A stretch of DNA of 5,410 nt, taken from a virus (taxonomy: Duplodnaviria > Heunggongvirae > Uroviricota > Caudoviricetes). Where the stretch lies: IMG/VR virus record IMGVR_UViG_2737471817_000013, one strand, 5' to 3'. The position numbers and the translations under genes are program-made. Below, piece after piece: positions 1 to 5,043 of the stretch; positions within the stretch are counted from its first letter, which is position 1; each line of letters begins with the position of its first letter. Below the pieces are notes generated by a model. The model was not told the DNA's origin, did not search any database, and was given only the letters and a program-made list of their open reading frames with translations.

Positions 1-1818
1 TTAATTTTTACTATCGTCATTAGTGACCGATACACATGATGGCATCCAGTCTTCTGATTCCTCCGTCAGTGTCACGTTTGAACGAAAACCGTGCTTCGTT
101 TTCCGTTTCATATACTCCCTGCCATATTCCGCCATTGCCCCCGGCATATCTTTACCGAAGCGCGTCAGTGTTACAGGTTTACCAAACCCATGTGCCCTCA
201 TATAAGCCAGATAGGCATGATAGAGATACCTACGTGGGCTGAATGGCACAATTTCAGCATTACCCACTAACAGGCCATCACACATTACCGACGCCATGAG
301 ATAGCCGCAGAAGTCCACCAGCGAATCCCCCTCTCGCTTTATCGCCAGTGCTTCTTCAGATTTCTGCTGCTCATATAACAGGCGTCTGGCTTCGTCCTGG
401 TCAGCAAACCGTGTAAGCAGATGGCGAATCACTACCGCCAGCTCACCTTCTATTTTTTCCGCCAGCATGGGGTCGCGCTCGTTCTCCGGTACAACCTCCG
501 AAAAATTGAATATCACCCGACGACGTGAGATCCCCCCGCTGCGGTCACTGAATGACATGGCGTTATTGTTCACCGCCAGCACGACCGCCTGAATGCGTGT
601 TGAGTAGGGGGCTTTATGCTTCGGGTCGATTGCCACCTTGTCACCGCCTGTAATGGCCTTAATTCCTGCGCCATCACCAGCGTAGCGGGTCATATCCGGC
701 ATGATAATCAGCGAAAAGCCAACCACTAACGCGCGTTCCCTTGCATCTTCCAGCGCCTTCATGCTTGCCGATACTGTGTTGGCCTTACCTGCCAGCATGG
801 TGCAAATCTCCGCCATCACGCTTTTACCACTTCCCCCTGGACCTGTTACCTCAATGAATAACTGCCAGTCGTACCGGTTCGCCAGCACCATGAATAATGC
901 AGCCAGCACGCGATCCGCCTTGCGGTCATTCTCAGCCACCGAACGGCGTAACCACTTCCAGAAATTCGGCGCATGTGTTGCCAGCGTTTCCCCCTCTGCT
1001 GGTGGGCTGAAAGGTAATTCACTGGCAATTAACAACCAGTCGTTTTTGTTATGCTCCCGAAAATTACCTGTTCTGGTATCAAATACCCCGTTACTGAATC
1101 CAATCAGGTTACGGGCTGTATTCCCCATTACAGGCAAACTTAACTTCATGGTATCGACCGCCGATTTAATGGCGTTCTGCGAATAGCTGATCTCCGCATC
1201 AATGAAAATCTGTGCCATAGCTCGCTGTAATTCTTTATCCTGAATCGGCTCCCATACAACGCCGTTGTAATGGTGAACAGTGTCAGAGTCAGCATGAATC
1301 GCCAGTTCACCGCCATAATGTGCCAGGAGAACTTCGCCGCGTTGACTTGCTCCCATCTGGTTAAGCGCCAGTGATGAAGCGTTACCGTCTTTTACCCGCT
1401 CTTTTTTCTTTACAGGCAGTTCAACTACCTTTTTCTTTTCCGCCTGCTCTGCCCGTTCACGTTCCAGATATTCGCGCCAGTTCTCCCGTTTCTGGCTGTG
1501 CATTCCTTCAGGGTAATAATCAGCATCCCTGACACCTGCCACTGCCAGTTTCTGCCCGATGGTATTAACAAGCCCCGGACGCAATAACCCCGCCTGATAG
1601 AGACGCACGCGATAGCGTCCGTCCGGTACGATTTGCAGGTTGTCCAGTTCGGCAAGTTGTTGCTCTCCAAGCCAGACAGGAGGCACGTTATCGCCAGCCA
1701 GTCGCCCGTCCTGTTCCTGCCACTGATTCGCATGTGCCCACGCATCACTACCCGCAAAAATGATGACTTCCGTCATTTTGTCACGCGGCTGGTGTTTTAA
1801 ATTTGGCGCTTTTTTCAT
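1..1818 (-). CDS. P4 alpha-like replication protein (primase/helicase: D5_N-like region followed by P4-family primase C-terminal P-loop ATPase domain)
   Basis: 605-codon ORF ending in TAA at 3..1. ATG at 1818..1816 overlaps the TGA of the upstream ORF (ATGA coupling) and is preceded by GGAGAGAG about 8 nt upstream; the ORF-track start at 1833 is a GTG five codons further up. Walker A GPGGSGKS is encoded at 820..843. Downstream motifs (KAITGGDKVAIDPKHKAP, VNNNAMSFSD, RRRVIFNF) and the upstream NGVFDTRTG block match what I remember of the D5_N / P4-primase C-terminal family. A K/E-rich charged linker is encoded at about 1384..1479. Confidence 0.9.
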   Translation of the reverse strand: MKKAPNLKHQPRDKMTEVIIFAGSDAWAHANQWQEQDGRLAGDNVPPVWLGEQQLAELDNLQIVPDGRYRVRLYQAGLLRPGLVNTIGQKLAVAGVRDADYYPEGMHSQKRENWREYLERERAEQAEKKKVVELPVKKKERVKDGNASSLALNQMGASQRGEVLLAHYGGELAIHADSDTVHHYNGVVWEPIQDKELQRAMAQIFIDAEISYSQNAIKSAVDTMKLSLPVMGNTARNLIGFSNGVFDTRTGNFREHNKNDWLLIASELPFSPPAEGETLATHAPNFWKWLRRSVAENDRKADRVLAALFMVLANRYDWQLFIEVTGPGGSGKSVMAEICTMLAGKANTVSASMKALEDARERALVVGFSLIIMPDMTRYAGDGAGIKAITGGDKVAIDPKHKAPYSTRIQAVVLAVNNNAMSFSDRSGGISRRRVIFNFSEVVPENERDPMLAEKIEGELAVVIRHLLTRFADQDEARRLLYEQQKSEEALAIKREGDSLVDFCGYLMASVMCDGLLVGNAEIVPFSPRRYLYHAYLAYMRAHGFGKPVTLTRFGKDMPGAMAEYGREYMKRKTKHGFRSNVTLTEESEDWMPSCVSVTNDDSKN

Positions 1819-2114
1819 TTCTGCTCTCTCCACGCGGCAATCATGTTTTTCAGTTCCTGTAGTTTTTTATCAACATCCATACATGACACATGGTTATTTC
1901 TGGAAAGCGGGATTTCCCGCCGGAATCTGCAAATAAAGATCTCCACGTTCAGCGAACTATGAAATGAATAGCCATCACGAATAAAATAAACACGGTCAAA
2001 CATCAGTTCTTTTACCGTTACTCTGTTACCGTTCTTATCCAGATAAATAGCGCCGGGGATAATTTTGGGGTGTGCATAACCGCTGGCAGTCAAGCCAGAT
2101 AAATATGTTCTCAT
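1815..2114 (-). CDS. Hypothetical small protein (99 aa), translationally coupled to the primase gene
   Basis: ATG at 2114..2112 with GGGGAT about 9 nt upstream. Its TGA stop overlaps the primase ATG. It starts 6 nt after the stop of the preceding ORF. I recognise no family. Confidence 0.6.
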   Translation of the reverse strand: MRTYLSGLTASGYAHPKIIPGAIYLDKNGNRVTVKELMFDRVYFIRDGYSFHSSLNVEIFICRFRREIPLSRNNHVSCMDVDKKLQELKNMIAAWREQK

Positions 2115-2120
2115 GATTAT

Positions 2121-2441
2121 TTATCCCCGATTTGAATCAGTATTCGCTTTCTTTATGGCATTTAATGCATCTGTGGCATTTTCAATGGTGCACCGTAACG
2201 AAATATCAAACTGCCCAAGCATTGCCAGTAACAAACCGATATTACCCATATCAATGCGCATAGCCTTTTCGTCATAGTCCTCATTTTCTGACGCATGCCA
2301 CATCAGGCTACCAATTGACGCAACAGCCATTGATATATTGTCAGTAGCCCCATCCGCAGCGGAATAAACCTTTTTAGCAATATCATGCTCACAGTTAAAA
2401 TGCGGATTAATCAGGTACTGGTAATTTGACATATCAGGCAT
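2121..2441 (-). CDS. Hypothetical small protein (106 aa)
   Basis: ATG at 2441..2439 preceded by AGGGGG about 8 nt upstream, overlapping the last codons of the upstream ORF by 8 nt. An alternative ATG lies at 2432. The product is acidic; I recognise no family. Confidence 0.6.
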   Translation of the reverse strand: MPDMSNYQYLINPHFNCEHDIAKKVYSAADGATDNISMAVASIGSLMWHASENEDYDEKAMRIDMGNIGLLLAMLGQFDISLRCTIENATDALNAIKKANTDSNRG

Positions 2442-2799
2442 GGCACACCCCCTGACGAATACGGGCGGCGAATACCATCACGCAGCCAGCCGGGGATTGC
2501 TGGCGTGCTTCCTGTTCGCTGGTGGCCTCGATGTGAATTACGCGCGGTTGTGCCGTGCTCAGGGCGATAAAACGCCAGATAAAATTGTTCTCGCATTTCT
2601 GAATAAACAGCGTGTTTTCTTCGCGCCCTTTCCATGTTGCCGAGATATAGCCCATGTCATTGAGCATCTCGCAGGCATCAACCAGCGTATCAGCAGCTAC
2701 GTGTACAGTGTTTTTACCGTCAGCTATGCAATCACGGTGCACCGCCAGGAAGGTGTATATAAATTTAGGGTGAGTTTGGGTATGCTGTGTTCCAGCCAT
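2434..2799 (-). CDS. Hypothetical protein (121 aa), first gene of the primase-proximal operon
   Basis: ATG at 2799..2797 preceded by GAGG (plus-strand cctc at 2808..2811) 8 nt upstream; TGA stop at 2436..2434. Protein-like composition. It is the C-terminal part of the 510-aa ORF-track frame but has its own start signals directly downstream of an AT-rich promoter region. Confidence 0.65.
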   Translation of the reverse strand: MAGTQHTQTHPKFIYTFLAVHRDCIADGKNTVHVAADTLVDACEMLNDMGYISATWKGREENTLFIQKCENNFIWRFIALSTAQPRVIHIEATSEQEARQQSPAGCVMVFAARIRQGVCHA

Positions 2800-2829
2800 A
2801 ATCGTTACCTCATTTAACGGTTTGGTTAG

Positions 2830-2863
2830 ACGCCCCGCTACTGCCGCAAACAGTTCGGGGCGT
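2830..2863 (-). other. GC-rich stem-loop in the putative 5' leader of the primase-proximal operon
   Basis: ACGCCCCG (2830..2837) pairs with CGGGGCGT (2856..2863) around an 18-nt loop that has an internal CTG/CAG pair. It sits between the inferred minus promoter and the RBS at 2808..2811. No U-tract follows on either strand. Confidence 0.3.
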
Positions 2864-2884: not shown

Positions 2885-2986
2885 GAGGTGTGATTTAAAT
2901 TAAATTTAACTGAATCACAGGTCAAGTATTTTTTGTGATTCTTTTTTGTGTATACTGAATCACATCTTTTGTTTAGGAGAATGCAC
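2885..2986. promoter_or_regulatory. Divergent promoter/operator region with four TGTGATT half-sites forming two palindromes
   Basis: TGTGATT at 2889..2895 and 2934..2940; its reverse complement AATCACA at 2913..2919 and 2958..2964. CTGAATCACA is repeated exactly at 2910..2919 and 2955..2964. Plus-strand -10-like TATACT at 2951..2956, then AGGAGA (2975..2980) and ATG at 2987. Minus-strand -35-like TTGACC (plus 2920..2925) and -10-like TAATTT (plus 2897..2902) with a 17-nt spacer, pointing toward the 2799 start. Confidence 0.55.
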
Positions 2987-3292
2987 ATGGCAAAAAACAC
3001 TATCAACGACAAATCAAAACAGATTTCAATTCGTATCCCACATGATGCTTTTGAAGGCATGGAATCCGTAAAACTGGACGGTGAAAGCAACGCCGGATTC
3101 ATAGTAACCGCCATGCGCGGTGAGATCGCCCGCCGCCAGGCAGAAGGAAGCGGAGAAAATCCCCTGGTTTCTTCGCTCGATGCGCTGGCGCAGGTGGAAA
3201 AAATCGGAGTCAAAGCTGCCGAGGAGATCGGGCAGCTCGTCACCGTCGCACGTGAAGAACTCCAGCGCCGCAAGGCCAAAGAATCAGAATAA
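2987..3292 (+). CDS. Ribbon-helix-helix DNA-binding protein, Arc/Mnt-like repressor with a C-terminal helical tail (101 aa)
   Basis: AGGAGA 6 nt upstream of ATG 2987; TAA stop at 3290..3292. Good codon usage. N-terminal KQISIRIP (beta strand), HDAFEGMESVKL (helix A), G-E-S-N-A-G turn and FIVTAMRGEIARR (helix B) follow the RHH pattern of P22 Arc/Mnt (GRS-N-SE turn). The C-terminal 45 residues are A/E/K/L-rich, consistent with an oligomerisation helix. The ORF-track start at 2948 is a GTG inside the promoter and is not preferred. Confidence 0.75.
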   Translation: MAKNTINDKSKQISIRIPHDAFEGMESVKLDGESNAGFIVTAMRGEIARRQAEGSGENPLVSSLDALAQVEKIGVKAAEEIGQLVTVAREELQRRKAKESE

Positions 3293-3349: not shown

Positions 3350-3544
3350 ATGACCAACAAAGAATCAACCAATACACCATCACCGGCACGGAAAAGACGG
3401 CGCAGAAAGATAGAGCACGAATCAGAAAGATTCGCGCCATGTGCTTTTGCCCTTGAGCAATTCCTTAAAGAGTACAGGCGCACAAAAATGGGATCGCATA
3501 CCTGGAAAACATCGCGGCATGGCAATGTTAAAGAGCATGAATAG
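3350..3544 (+). CDS. Doubtful small basic ORF (64 aa) with an arginine-rich N-terminal stretch (ARKRRRRK)
   Basis: ATG at 3350 with a weak AGGT about 8 nt upstream; TAG stop at 3542..3544. It uses several AGA/AGG/CGG/ATA codons that are rare in enterobacterial genes, so coding status is uncertain. Confidence 0.25.
   Translation: MTNKESTNTPSPARKRRRRKIEHESERFAPCAFALEQFLKEYRRTKMGSHTWKTSRHGNVKEHE
3415..3437 (-). terminator. Candidate intrinsic terminator for the alpA operon (hairpin followed by a U-rich tract on the minus strand)
   Basis: GCACGAATC (3415..3423) pairs with GATTCGCGC (3429..3437) with one mismatch around the loop AGAAA. On the minus strand the hairpin is followed by TCTATCTTTCTGCGCCGTCTTTTCC. 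The stem is modest, so this is weakly supported. Confidence 0.3.
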
Positions 3545-3966
3545 CCCACCAGCAAGCCAGCACACTGATCACATTGCCCACCAGCCGCAAATCTGGCATT
3601 GTTGGCAATGTGTTCAAGTGTGTAGCTTTCCCACTGGTGGCCCTCTGCAGTCGCCTTTGTTTTATCCAGAACGAAATCAGACATCAGATTGATCAGCACC
3701 TGGTGACCTGACAAAATCGCATCAGTCACGCCACCAGCAAAATTTTTTGCTTTCCGGACAGCGTGGCCAACGGCATTTTGCAGCGAAATATTCTGCATTT
3801 CTGGCGTGCTGTAGTAACGGTGATCAGTGCCTTCACTCTGTGCGACCACAACGCTATAATCTGCCTCGTAGACAGTAAGCAATATGGCGCAGTAGGCTAT
3901 TCGTTCACAAAGGCGCTCCGGCAACGGGGCGCTTTCTCTTTTTGTAACGGTCAGAGCGTTACACAT
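3545..3966 (-). CDS. Hypothetical protein with a well-supported start but an undeterminable 3' end (no in-frame stop before 2434)
   Basis: ATG at 3966..3964 preceded by GGAGG (plus-strand cctcc at 3976..3980) 9 nt upstream; the start abuts the stop of the upstream gene. The first ~140 codons look protein-like (VTDAILSGHQVLINLMSDFVLDKTKATAEGHQWESYTLEHIANNARF). Beyond about 3545 the translation becomes S/R/C/L-rich and is antisense to plus-strand ORFs. 3545 is a nominal boundary, not an observed stop. Confidence 0.4.
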
Positions 3967-4759
3967 GGCTGTTTTCCTCCATGCGACGGGCTAACCAACG
4001 CTGCGAAAGACGAATTAATTCAGCTTTCCGCTGGTGGTAGCCCTGGCCTAACTCAATCAGCGTGATATTGCTCTGCTCAAGGTAAGAAAGGTGCTCAAGC
4101 TGCAACGTGCTCATGTGGTCGCGTGGTTCGCCTGTGATGCCGTTCGCCTGCGCCCACTGTTTTGCAGTCATGCCACCCAGCACGATACGCGCCAGCATAT
4201 TGGCTTCCGTGGTGTAGTGGTGCTGGAACGTGTTTTTACCCAGTTCAGCCCGGTACGCCTCCAGCGCGGCACACATTGGCTTAAAGTAGCTGGCAACGGT
4301 GATACGGGCTTTCAGTTCCCGGCGTAATGCTGCGGAACGCACTGGCGCTACCTTGTGTAGCTCCTCCTCGCATTTGATAAAGTACTGGCGAACGGCGCGG
4401 CCCTGTTCGGTACGTTCGACCATCGCCAGTTCTTTCGCCATATTCACTGTGATGATGTACTCAAGAGCGGTTTGCTGGCGAGATTTTGCGCTCACCGGAT
4501 CGGGTCGGCTCAAATATTCAACAACCTCATAATCCACGCCTTCCGTGAACCCGTATTCTTCAATGCGCCCCTTGATCCACGAACGGAAAACGCGCCCTAC
4601 ACCTAACGCCTTATGTAACGCTCTGGCGCTAACAATAGTGGTTTCACGCCCACCAATAACGCCGGAAATAACCGGAATAATTTCAGCGAAATTTTGCAGA
4701 TTCTGTTTTTCAGGCCGAACGAAGCCCCGCCCCTGTACAGGCGTATATCCAGTATTCAT
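3959..4759 (-). CDS. Phage regulatory / antirepressor-like protein (Rha or KilA-N/ORF6N-type N-terminal DNA-binding region with ORF6C-like C-terminal region), 266 aa
   Basis: ATG at 4759..4757; TAA stop at 3961..3959. The N-terminal segment TIVSARALHKALGVGRVFRSWIKGRIEEYGFTEGVDYEV and the C-terminal segment TEANMLARIVLGGMTAKQWAQANGITGEPRDHMSTLQLEHLSYLEQSNITLIELGQGYHQRKAEL resemble phage Rha/Ant-type regulators as I remember them. The exact Pfam family is not certain. The RBS is weak. Confidence 0.75.
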   Translation of the reverse strand: MNTGYTPVQGRGFVRPEKQNLQNFAEIIPVISGVIGGRETTIVSARALHKALGVGRVFRSWIKGRIEEYGFTEGVDYEVVEYLSRPDPVSAKSRQQTALEYIITVNMAKELAMVERTEQGRAVRQYFIKCEEELHKVAPVRSAALRRELKARITVASYFKPMCAALEAYRAELGKNTFQHHYTTEANMLARIVLGGMTAKQWAQANGITGEPRDHMSTLQLEHLSYLEQSNITLIELGQGYHQRKAELIRLSQRWLARRMEENSHV

Positions 4760-4811: not shown

Positions 4812-5000
4812 TTAGTGAACTGCCTCGCGGCTGTCCTTCCATGCCAGAACTTCGGATAAAGACCAGCCAACGGAACGACCACCGAGTTTACGCCGTGATG
4901 GGAATTGTCCGGCTTTTTCCAGGCGGTAGCGGCATGAACGGCTCAGGCCTGTAAGTTGCTGACATTCTTTTTCACGTATAAAGCGATCTGTGCTTAACAC
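4812..5000 (-). CDS. alpA: AlpA/Vis-family phage transcriptional regulator (excisionase-like winged helix), 62 aa from a GTG start
   Basis: RFIREKECQQLTGLSRSCRYRLEKAGQFPSRRKLGGRSVGWSLSEVLAWK aligns by eye with E. coli AlpA (RILRLPAVIQKTGMARATIYDWL...MLGVKSVGWIEAEIDEWL). GTG at 5000..4998 is preceded by GGGGG (plus 5005..5009) 4 nt upstream. The ORF-track 104-aa version begins at a TTG at 5126, and its extra N-terminus is the translation of a (CCCAA)n repeat. TAA stop at 4814..4812. Confidence 0.8.
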   Translation of the reverse strand: MLSTDRFIREKECQQLTGLSRSCRYRLEKAGQFPSRRKLGGRSVGWSLSEVLAWKDSREAVH

Positions 5001-5043
5001 AATTCCCCCTTTGTTGTTTCTTAAAGAGTCATTGGGTGGATTA

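Follow-up and report, generated by a model that had tools for sequence, protein, structure and literature searches.

Gram-negative phage-inducible chromosomal islands (PICIs) typically carry the gene order int-alpA-Bro-replicase (PMC10111431; PMC6092414). They have so far been described as unidirectionally transcribed, AlpA-activated elements with no known repressor, and the founding paper on them stated that their global repressor was unclear (PMC6092414). The described system closest in role to the locus considered here is Stl/Rpr of the Gram-positive PICIs (Staphylococcus aureus pathogenicity islands, SaPIs), whose repressor gene is counter-oriented and divergent from the replication module and whose intergenic operator controls the lytic/replication genes of the satellite (PMC6092414); the closest in mechanism is Mnt/Arc of P22 (immI). 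For the 'Bro zone' of the Gram-negative satellites, immunity of the P4/P1 RNA type has been described (PMC10111431). Here we analyse a 5410-bp stretch of DNA (virus record IMGVR_UViG_2737471817_000013, hereafter the window) in which region 2885-3292, 100% identical to E. coli strain EC42405, contains a gene for a 101-aa ribbon-helix-helix (RHH) protein and, directly upstream of it, four copies of a short repeat. We propose that the protein is probably an autoregulated repressor that shuts the promoter of an operon for an Icd-like protein and a primase, through four 9-bp sites laid over this promoter and its own. The cassette would provide a concrete repressor candidate for these islands.

The heptamer TGTGATT has exactly four matches in the window, at 2889-2895 and 2934-2940 on the plus strand and at 2913-2919 and 2958-2964 on the minus strand. 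Shuffled windows are expected to hold 0.89 matches each. All four lie within 76 bp (2889-2964), a length for which about 0.012 would be expected (probability roughly 1e-9). A repeat search returned two inverted repeats, each with a 17-nt spacer, and the 11-nt sequence ACTGAATCACA repeated directly at a distance of 45 bp. Match count and repeat search together reproduce what a first-pass annotation of the window had described, namely two palindromes (2889-2919 and 2934-2964) whose centres, at 2904 and 2949, are separated by 45 bp. As the repeat unit, the 9-bp sequence TGTGATTYA is more fitting, with centres at 2893, 2915, 2938 and 2960 and spacings of 22, 23 and 22 bp (about two helical turns), and the array is dyad-symmetric about 2926/2927, between two back-to-back promoters. 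RHH proteins bind DNA as dimers, with a two-stranded beta-ribbon in the major groove, and each 9-bp element is probably the full site of one dimer, not a half-site. The elements of the region are as follows.

2889-2897, plus strand: operator site 1, TGTGATTTA, lying where the leftward promoter is expected to start transcription.
2911-2919, minus strand: operator site 2, TGTGATTCA, within the spacer of the leftward promoter, directly adjoining the -35 box.
2934-2942, plus strand: operator site 3, TGTGATTCT, shortly before the -10 box of the promoter serving the RHH gene.
2956-2964, minus strand: operator site 4, TGTGATTCA, directly after TATACT, over the expected start of the RHH transcript.
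2920-2925, minus strand: -35 box TTGACC (5/6) of the leftward promoter, which serves the Icd-like/primase operon; as GTCAAG, the most conserved non-site element in 15 strand variants.
2897-2902, minus strand: -10 box TAATTT (3/6) of the leftward promoter, after a 17-nt spacer; fits the family consensus TAAnnT.
2951-2956, plus strand: TATACT, the -10 box of the promoter for the RHH gene; conserved across classes as TGTGTATAcT.
2975-2980, plus strand: Shine-Dalgarno sequence AGGAGA, 6-7 nt upstream of the ATG (2987), read from the sequence.
2987-3292, plus strand: gene of the 101-aa RHH protein, stop codon included (RefSeq 'YlcI/YnfO family protein').

Each promoter has one site in its spacer beside the -35 position and one over its expected start point, a placement that fits repression of both promoters, as the first-pass annotation had suggested. 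With up to one mismatch allowed, TGTGATTYA recurs in the rest of the window only at 549 and 2532, which is within chance, and nowhere in the region of alpA, antA and the 141-aa open reading frame (ORF) orf141. Because the window holds no further sites, the int/alpA/antA block appears to lie outside operator control. The earlier label 'master switch' was in this respect overstated, the array giving no sign of control over the whole element (int, xis, alpA).

We next turn to related loci, 13 of which came from reference genomes, 6 from an exact-protein look-up and 80 from metagenomes; about 60 of them, in 12 classes of the variable beta-strand residues 12 and 14 of the RHH protein, entered the analysis of co-variation. 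In all loci examined the four sites begin, counted from the ATG, near -98, -74, -53 and -29, with spacings of 22-23 bp. Sites 2 and 3 are separated by a GTCAAG box (TTGAC on the minus strand) with a T-run after it, and TGTGTATAcT precedes site 4. Every one of these cassettes lies directly upstream of an Icd-like gene and a replicase, in the same divergent layout.

The sequence of the sites shifts in concert in all four copies, following strand residues 12 and 14, and at least 10 specificity classes can be told apart. Residues Q,S go with TGTGATTyA (the class of the window), L,T with TGTGTTTCA, S,T with TGTAAG, Q,N with TGGTATTCA, K,Q with TGGATTCCA, which is a perfect palindrome, and M,T with GTGAGATAT/GTGATATAC; further strand/site classes exist beyond these six. 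Within the class of the window, 9 distinct upstream sequences agree completely in all four heptamers, while their spacers and flanks vary. The sites are the most conserved part of the upstream region within classes (identity 0.84, against 0.80 for flanking DNA) and the most divergent part between classes (0.43 against 0.55). Measured against the site clusters, adjusted mutual information amounts to 0.83 for the beta-strand, compared with 0.17 for the Icd-like gene and 0.02 for the C-terminal tail of the RHH protein. The earlier annotation had proposed to check whether TGTGATT is conserved together with the protein; what is found, sites that keep their positions and change their sequence with the beta-strand, is stronger than simple conservation.

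Other genes of the islands do not follow the sites. The cassette is followed by replicases of the D5_N/DUF5906, DUF927 or AAA_25 type, and each type goes with a site class of its own. One locus (L017) has a primase 98% identical to that of the window and different sites, and another (L012) has the same beta-strand and the same sites, with an AlpA only 48% identical and an unrelated replicase. A natural exchange is seen in E. coli SCU-102 (L104 1453-1755; MT class), where residues 23-68 of the RHH protein are identical to those of the window, with 5 differences from residue 23 onward, and residues 2-22 and all four sites differ. The DNA of the two islands is near-identical from about codon 23 on and, on the other side, from the start codon leftward through the Icd-like-proximal leader (hairpin 2, see below). 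Roughly 250 bp, comprising leader hairpin 1, the operator and codons 2-22, have been replaced. Separately, many E. coli matches align only from query base 154 or 214 (codon 18 or 38), showing the RHH gene itself to be a recombination mosaic.

The outer site bases TG...CA are common to most classes. On our reading the outer G would be contacted by the invariant R16 of each subunit, with residues 12 and 14 reading the inner bases. The co-variation of sites and strand is also indirect support for a dimeric two-stranded sheet that would read the major groove.

The promoter assignments draw on the same alignments. Across the 15 beta-strand variants the leftward promoter has the consensus TTGAC-17-TAAnnT at exactly the positions found in the window; the elements conserved across classes outside the sites are TTGAC, the T-run and TGTGTATAcT. 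The leftward promoter points, as noted before, into the operon of the 121-aa, 106-aa, 99-aa and primase genes, the gene order of which was confirmed and the first gene of which encodes the Icd-like protein. The leader of this operon is itself structured: the segment 2797-2892 (minus strand) has a minimum free energy of -34.3 kcal/mol and a fold z-score of -3.27. Two hairpins were obtained with RNAalifold from 14 loci.

2830-2863, minus strand: leader hairpin 1 of the Icd-like mRNA, with the conserved sequence UCUAACCA after it; supported by compensatory changes and coinciding with inverted repeat I4.
2803-2819, minus strand: leader hairpin 2, enclosing the Icd-like Shine-Dalgarno sequence GAGG (2808-2811).

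The pairs of hairpin 2 covary (CGUUA/UAACG to UGUAA/UUACA to CAUUA/UAAUG). A focused Rfam search with the leader gave sub-threshold matches only, the best being R1162 antisense RNA at 19 bits. The conserved pairing suggests a second, post-transcriptional (translational) layer of control on top of the operator.

The fold of the 101-aa protein was examined by family search and by modelling. NCBIfam family NF041551 (YlcI/YnfO_N) matches residues 9-50 with 65.3 bits against a cut-off of 30 (E 3.7e-18), placing the protein in this family; in PHROGs it matches phrog_6522, labelled 'unknown function'. The RHH motif consists of alternating strand residues and a G-x-S/T/N turn between the helices. Both are present: strand Q12-I13-S14-I15-R16-I17-P18 alternates polar and hydrophobic residues in the manner of the RHH superfamily, and the inter-helix turn G32-E33-S34 reads [G/D]-E-[S/T] in 30 homologues, with E33 invariant. 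The strand pattern x-hydrophobic-x-hydrophobic-R-hydrophobic-P lines up with HFNFRMP of Mnt and QFNLRWP of Arc. Structure prediction, which had been proposed as a check of the fold, gave an RHH-type N domain of beta-alpha-alpha architecture (about 45 residues): the AlphaFold2 model of this domain (predicted local distance difference test score, pLDDT, 84.9) is extended at 11-18 and helical at 19-28 and 35-53. The full-length AlphaFold model, made with 30 homologues, has the same extended segment, helices at 19-28 and 35-54, a low-confidence linker and a single long helix at 59-100, in agreement with the helical tail noted in the first reading.

2987-3154, plus strand: N-terminal RHH domain, residues 1-56, with the strand at about 11-17 (KQISIRI), helix A at 19-28 and helix B at 35-53.
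3161-3289, plus strand: C-terminal tail, residues 59-101, a single long amphipathic helix that follows a flexible linker (52-58).

Sub-threshold matches to Pfam family PF07704, which we take to be a member of the RHH clan, were found for 20 of the 30 homologues, and for the protein of the window such a match to PF07704 was all that Pfam returned. Fold searches with the full-length model were dominated by the long helix, and a single-sequence search against solved structures returned noise only. The family profile also gave a weak match to the helix-hairpin-helix of archaeal Hef (PDB 1x2i; E 0.005) over residues 45-86 (LVSSLDALAQVEKIGVKAAEEIGQLV), a candidate that finds no support in the AlphaFold prediction of one continuous helix. 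Among 1.84 billion proteins the family has 72 representatives at 50% identity, most of them of 52-70 aa and tail-less. Where present, the tail is strongly conserved (up to 96% identity) across islands of differing specificity, and is probably an oligomerisation or partner-binding domain. Because the short tail-less homologues keep the four-site geometry, it is probably not needed for recognition of the sites.

We consider the comparative evidence for a repressor robust, as far as sequences can carry it. Several observations nevertheless weigh against this reading. The promoters are the first of these: neither passed a generic scan, and promoter counts in the window are at chance level, so the promoter calls rest on conservation. 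The description of the minus-strand promoter as near-consensus holds for its -35 box and for the conserved positions of both elements, not for its weak -10 box, and for the rightward promoter the good -10 box stands without a recognisable -35 box; a T-run lies at 2928-2933. Likewise, the designation 'Arc/Mnt-like' is borne out by fold and architecture (model and strand pattern) and not by family membership, as none of the 30 homologues matches Pfam Arc (PF03869) or RHH_1 at E<=10, and hhalign comparisons of the family with Mnt (probability 1%) and with omega were not significant. Third, flanking non-site DNA also tracks the site clusters (adjusted mutual information 0.76), and the strand codons lie only 30-130 bp from the sites, so that the association could partly reflect physical linkage. 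Linkage alone fails to explain the joint change of four dispersed copies and a pattern in which the sites are most divergent between and most conserved within classes. Finally, classes LN, MN and VN differ in the relative orientation of the sites, and the role of the tail is uncertain, because tail-less homologues share the geometry and these three classes orient their sites differently.

In the mechanism that we favour, RHH dimers, with Q12, S14 and R16 as predicted DNA-reading residues, would fill the four sites about two helical turns apart and so shut both promoters. Sites 2 and 1 would cover the spacer and start of the TTGACC-17-TAATTT promoter, which leads into the Icd-like gene, two small ORFs and the primase-helicase gene, and sites 3 and 4 would cover the spacer and start of the repressor's own promoter (TATACT). 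In the integrated island, occupancy would silence the genes for the Icd-like protein, the DUF4222 protein and the primase, and would limit synthesis of the repressor to a steady level. The tail probably links dimers at neighbouring sites, giving cooperativity as with the tetramerisation helix of Mnt, or receives an inactivating partner. The N-terminal 22 codons and the operator (with leader hairpin 1 in the SCU-102 swap) would form an exchangeable specificity cassette, and its exchange may create different 'immunity' classes among related islands. Derepression would most likely come from AlpA-driven transcription out of the alpA-antA operon, or from an anti-repressor or helper-phage protein; the island's own AntA is a candidate, though it is not present in all relatives.

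The surroundings of the cassette identify the element. In the near-identical relative strain JNU the same island adjoins tRNA-Thr and proA, and the window corresponds to its left-central part. The gene order is int-alpA-Bro/AntA-primase, and the attachment site at tRNA-Thr/proA is common to the characterised PICI EcCIMP1 (PMC11773190). By gene order and position this is a PICI-type island and not P4 proper, and the first-pass term 'P4-like element' should be replaced. The other genes in the window are:

1-1818, minus strand: D5_N/DUF5906/Pox_D5 primase-helicase (Pfam/NCBIfam matches).
1815-2114, minus strand: DUF4222 protein (Pfam/NCBIfam matches).
2121-2441, minus strand: 106-aa ORF of the controlled operon.
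2434-2799, minus strand: 121-aa Icd-like protein, first gene of the controlled operon (NCBIfam NF033153, E 1.6e-22; RefSeq).
3350-3544, plus strand: 64-aa ORF (orf64), basic, MTNKESTNTPSPARKRRRRK... (RefSeq 'hypothetical protein'; phrog_21027, E 4.7e-28, function not assigned).
3962-4759, minus strand: AntA/Bro-type antirepressor.
4815-5021, minus strand: AlpA (PF05930).

The genes of the controlled operon abut or overlap each other, and orf141 belongs, also on the minus strand, to the alpA-antA block. The ORF map shows the RHH gene on the plus strand between two minus-strand gene blocks, as stated earlier. It is not the only well-supported plus-strand gene, as had been claimed, since orf64 too is supported by RefSeq and phrog_21027. 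Found 3' of the RHH gene in some relatives only, orf64 is possibly co-transcribed with it. Plus-strand terminator-like hairpins at 3636-3655 and 3910-3935, inside the convergent orf141, could end the RHH transcript there; if they are used, the RHH/orf64 transcript would be antisense to the 3' part or all of orf141. Counts of terminator-like hairpins in the window are at chance level.

Three further observations concern the islands. The C-terminal 50 residues of the Icd-like protein match PHROGs labelled 'transcriptional repressor' (phrog_6196, phrog_1743), which conflicts with the NCBI description of the Icd-like domain as a cell-division inhibitor. The Rfam int-alpA RNA motif (RF02996) lies between the integrase gene and alpA at L001 12554-12621 and also in L006, L007, L009 and L012; the window stops short of this region. 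A Xenorhabdus vietnamensis contig (NZ_MUBJ01000038.1) carries two RHH genes of the same class (L010 and L011) a few kb apart in opposite orientation, which may represent two adjacent islands or an inverted duplication.

The alternative that survives best, a possible one that we nonetheless hold to be clearly less likely than the mechanism above, accepts repression as real and has the operon switched on mainly by AlpA-activated read-through from the alpA-antA-orf141 operon. Such transcripts would run antisense through orf64 and the RHH gene, disturb RHH expression and enter the Icd-like/primase operon. The P4 promoter PLL, which overrides immunity at PLE, offers an analogy, and the layout of the window is favourable: the remaining genes share one orientation, the RHH gene is directed head-on against the alpA operon, and only one weak minus-strand terminator-like hairpin (3438-3414) lies between, in a window whose terminator counts do not exceed chance. 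AlpA is also known to activate downstream PICI genes and to be induced by helper phage (PMC6092414; PMC11773190), which speaks for the same route. A repressor sitting on four sites could, however, block an elongating polymerase as well.

It is unlikely, in our estimate, that the protein works as a two-way switch, repressing the replication promoter and activating its own weak one. P22 Mnt at Pant/Pmnt (immI) sets a precedent for such behaviour. The plus-strand promoter could need help, having no -35 box, and site 3 is consistently degenerate in the LT class (TGTATTTC for TGTGTTTC), as if the two promoters were treated unequally. Against this, site 4 stands directly after the -10 box and over the protein's own start, which is a repressing position, and the layout is mirror-symmetric for both promoters.

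We consider it very improbable that the repeats are iterons, or sites of the replicase, AlpA, the Icd-like protein or a host factor such as CRP, and unrelated to the RHH protein. TGTGA does resemble a CRP half-site, and replicases of the P4 type bind repeated sequences. The readings as CRP sites and as iterons were both rejected: the spacing is TGTGA-N21-TCACA and not the N6 of CRP, four copies of a host-factor site would not change in concert between islands, and the repeats overlap promoter elements and are not 3' of the replicase. Nor does the site sequence depend on the type of replicase, on AlpA or on the variant of the Icd-like protein. A similarly slight chance is left to an antitoxin paired with orf64 or a partition adaptor of the ParG/omega type, whose repeats would only autoregulate the pair: proximity of orf64 aside, no toxin is conserved alongside the RHH gene, orf64 being missing from many relatives that keep gene and operator and matching, with the defence-system library left out of the search, no Pfam or NCBIfam family and only a PHROG without assigned function, the window encodes no ParA-type ATPase, and half of the operator covers a promoter that points away, into the replication operon.

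A repressor at this position would take the place of an RNA in related islands. EcCIMP1 (L103, E. coli MP1, 16600-16840) is without the RHH gene and has, directly upstream of its Icd-like gene, isrK (69 bits) and the C4 antisense RNA (81 bits), with a c4-a1b1 target at the same place that stays below threshold (22.5 bits against a gathering score of 46.7). An Rfam scan of the window gave no match at E<=1, and none of isrK (RF01394), C4 (RF01695) and c4-a1b1 reached the gathering score in the 17 RHH-bearing sequences (the window and 16 loci). Because the RNAs lie there in EcCIMP1 and are found in none of these 17 sequences, the RHH-operator cassette would seem to occupy the immunity slot, and protein- and RNA-based modules appear to be alternatives, interchangeable at one position of the satellite genome.

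Of 5426 complete E. coli genomes, 654 (~12%) carry the cassette, among them ATCC 25922 and O111/O121 strains; it has no occurrence in 50,697 phage genomes. A literature search returned nothing linking the YlcI/YnfO family, or any RHH protein, to regulation of PICIs or P4-like elements, and no published results on deletion of the gene or on relief of repression by a product of the helper phage. Tentatively, the RHH protein could be the 'immunity' repressor, of protein type, that a large subgroup of Gram-negative PICIs had seemed to lack. It would then be encoded in an exchangeable cassette of about 250 bp (leader, operator and 22 codons) with at least 10 mutually orthogonal immunity classes, a cassette that replaced antisense-RNA immunity of the P4/P1 type, and its C-terminal helix would be a common handle for derepression by helper phage, AlpA-driven read-through or AntA. 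The natural swaps of strand and operator also amount to a ready recognition table, in which residues 12 and 14 are matched with the inner bases of sites of the form TG-N5-CA; such a table predicts which co-resident islands cross-repress and could serve the engineering of orthogonal small repressors.

Among known proteins, those of the same family NF041551 in E. coli K-12, YlcI (of DLP12) and YnfO (of Qin), are uncharacterised. They are tail-less proteins of 64-77 aa, against 101 aa with a tail in the window. YlcI has the same RNIRFP...GSGNF...A..RRR pattern, although BLASTP gave no pairwise alignment between it and the window protein; its strand RNIRFP resembles that of the MN class of island proteins. 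The ylcI gene (64 aa; L102 8252-8840) is counter-oriented beside cos and nohD of the cryptic lambdoid prophage DLP12 and not beside a replication operon, and no similar four-site array is evident upstream of it.

Two plasmid proteins are alike in mechanism as RHH repressors of replication functions. Omega of pSM19035 (PDB 2bnw) binds contiguous heptads, unlike sites two helical turns apart, is without a long C-terminal helix and regulates plasmid copy-number, partition and toxin-antitoxin promoters. CopG of pMV158 is co-transcribed with repB from a single promoter with one pseudo-symmetric operator, and has neither the tail nor the divergent arrangement seen here. Among immunity systems, the CI RNA of P4 and the C4 RNA of P1 hold the same slot, directly upstream of the Icd-like gene and replicase in int-alpA satellites; they are RNA-based, acting by premature termination or translational block, whereas the candidate here is a protein. 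Stl proteins are larger helix-turn-helix proteins, and their derepression by helper-phage proteins has been demonstrated.

The likeness to P22 Mnt/Arc extends to the RHH N domain with its shared strand pattern, to a C-terminal helical oligomerisation tail as in Mnt (here a predicted helix) and, on our reading of the locus, to an operator over divergent promoters through which an autoregulated repressor would gate an early or lytic function. In sequence, the similarity to Mnt is not significant. Mnt has a single 17-bp operator, whose half-sites lie roughly one helical turn from each other, in contrast to four 9-bp sites at spacings of 22-23 bp over 76 bp, and it controls an antirepressor, whereas the 101-aa protein would control the Icd-like/primase operon of a satellite island.

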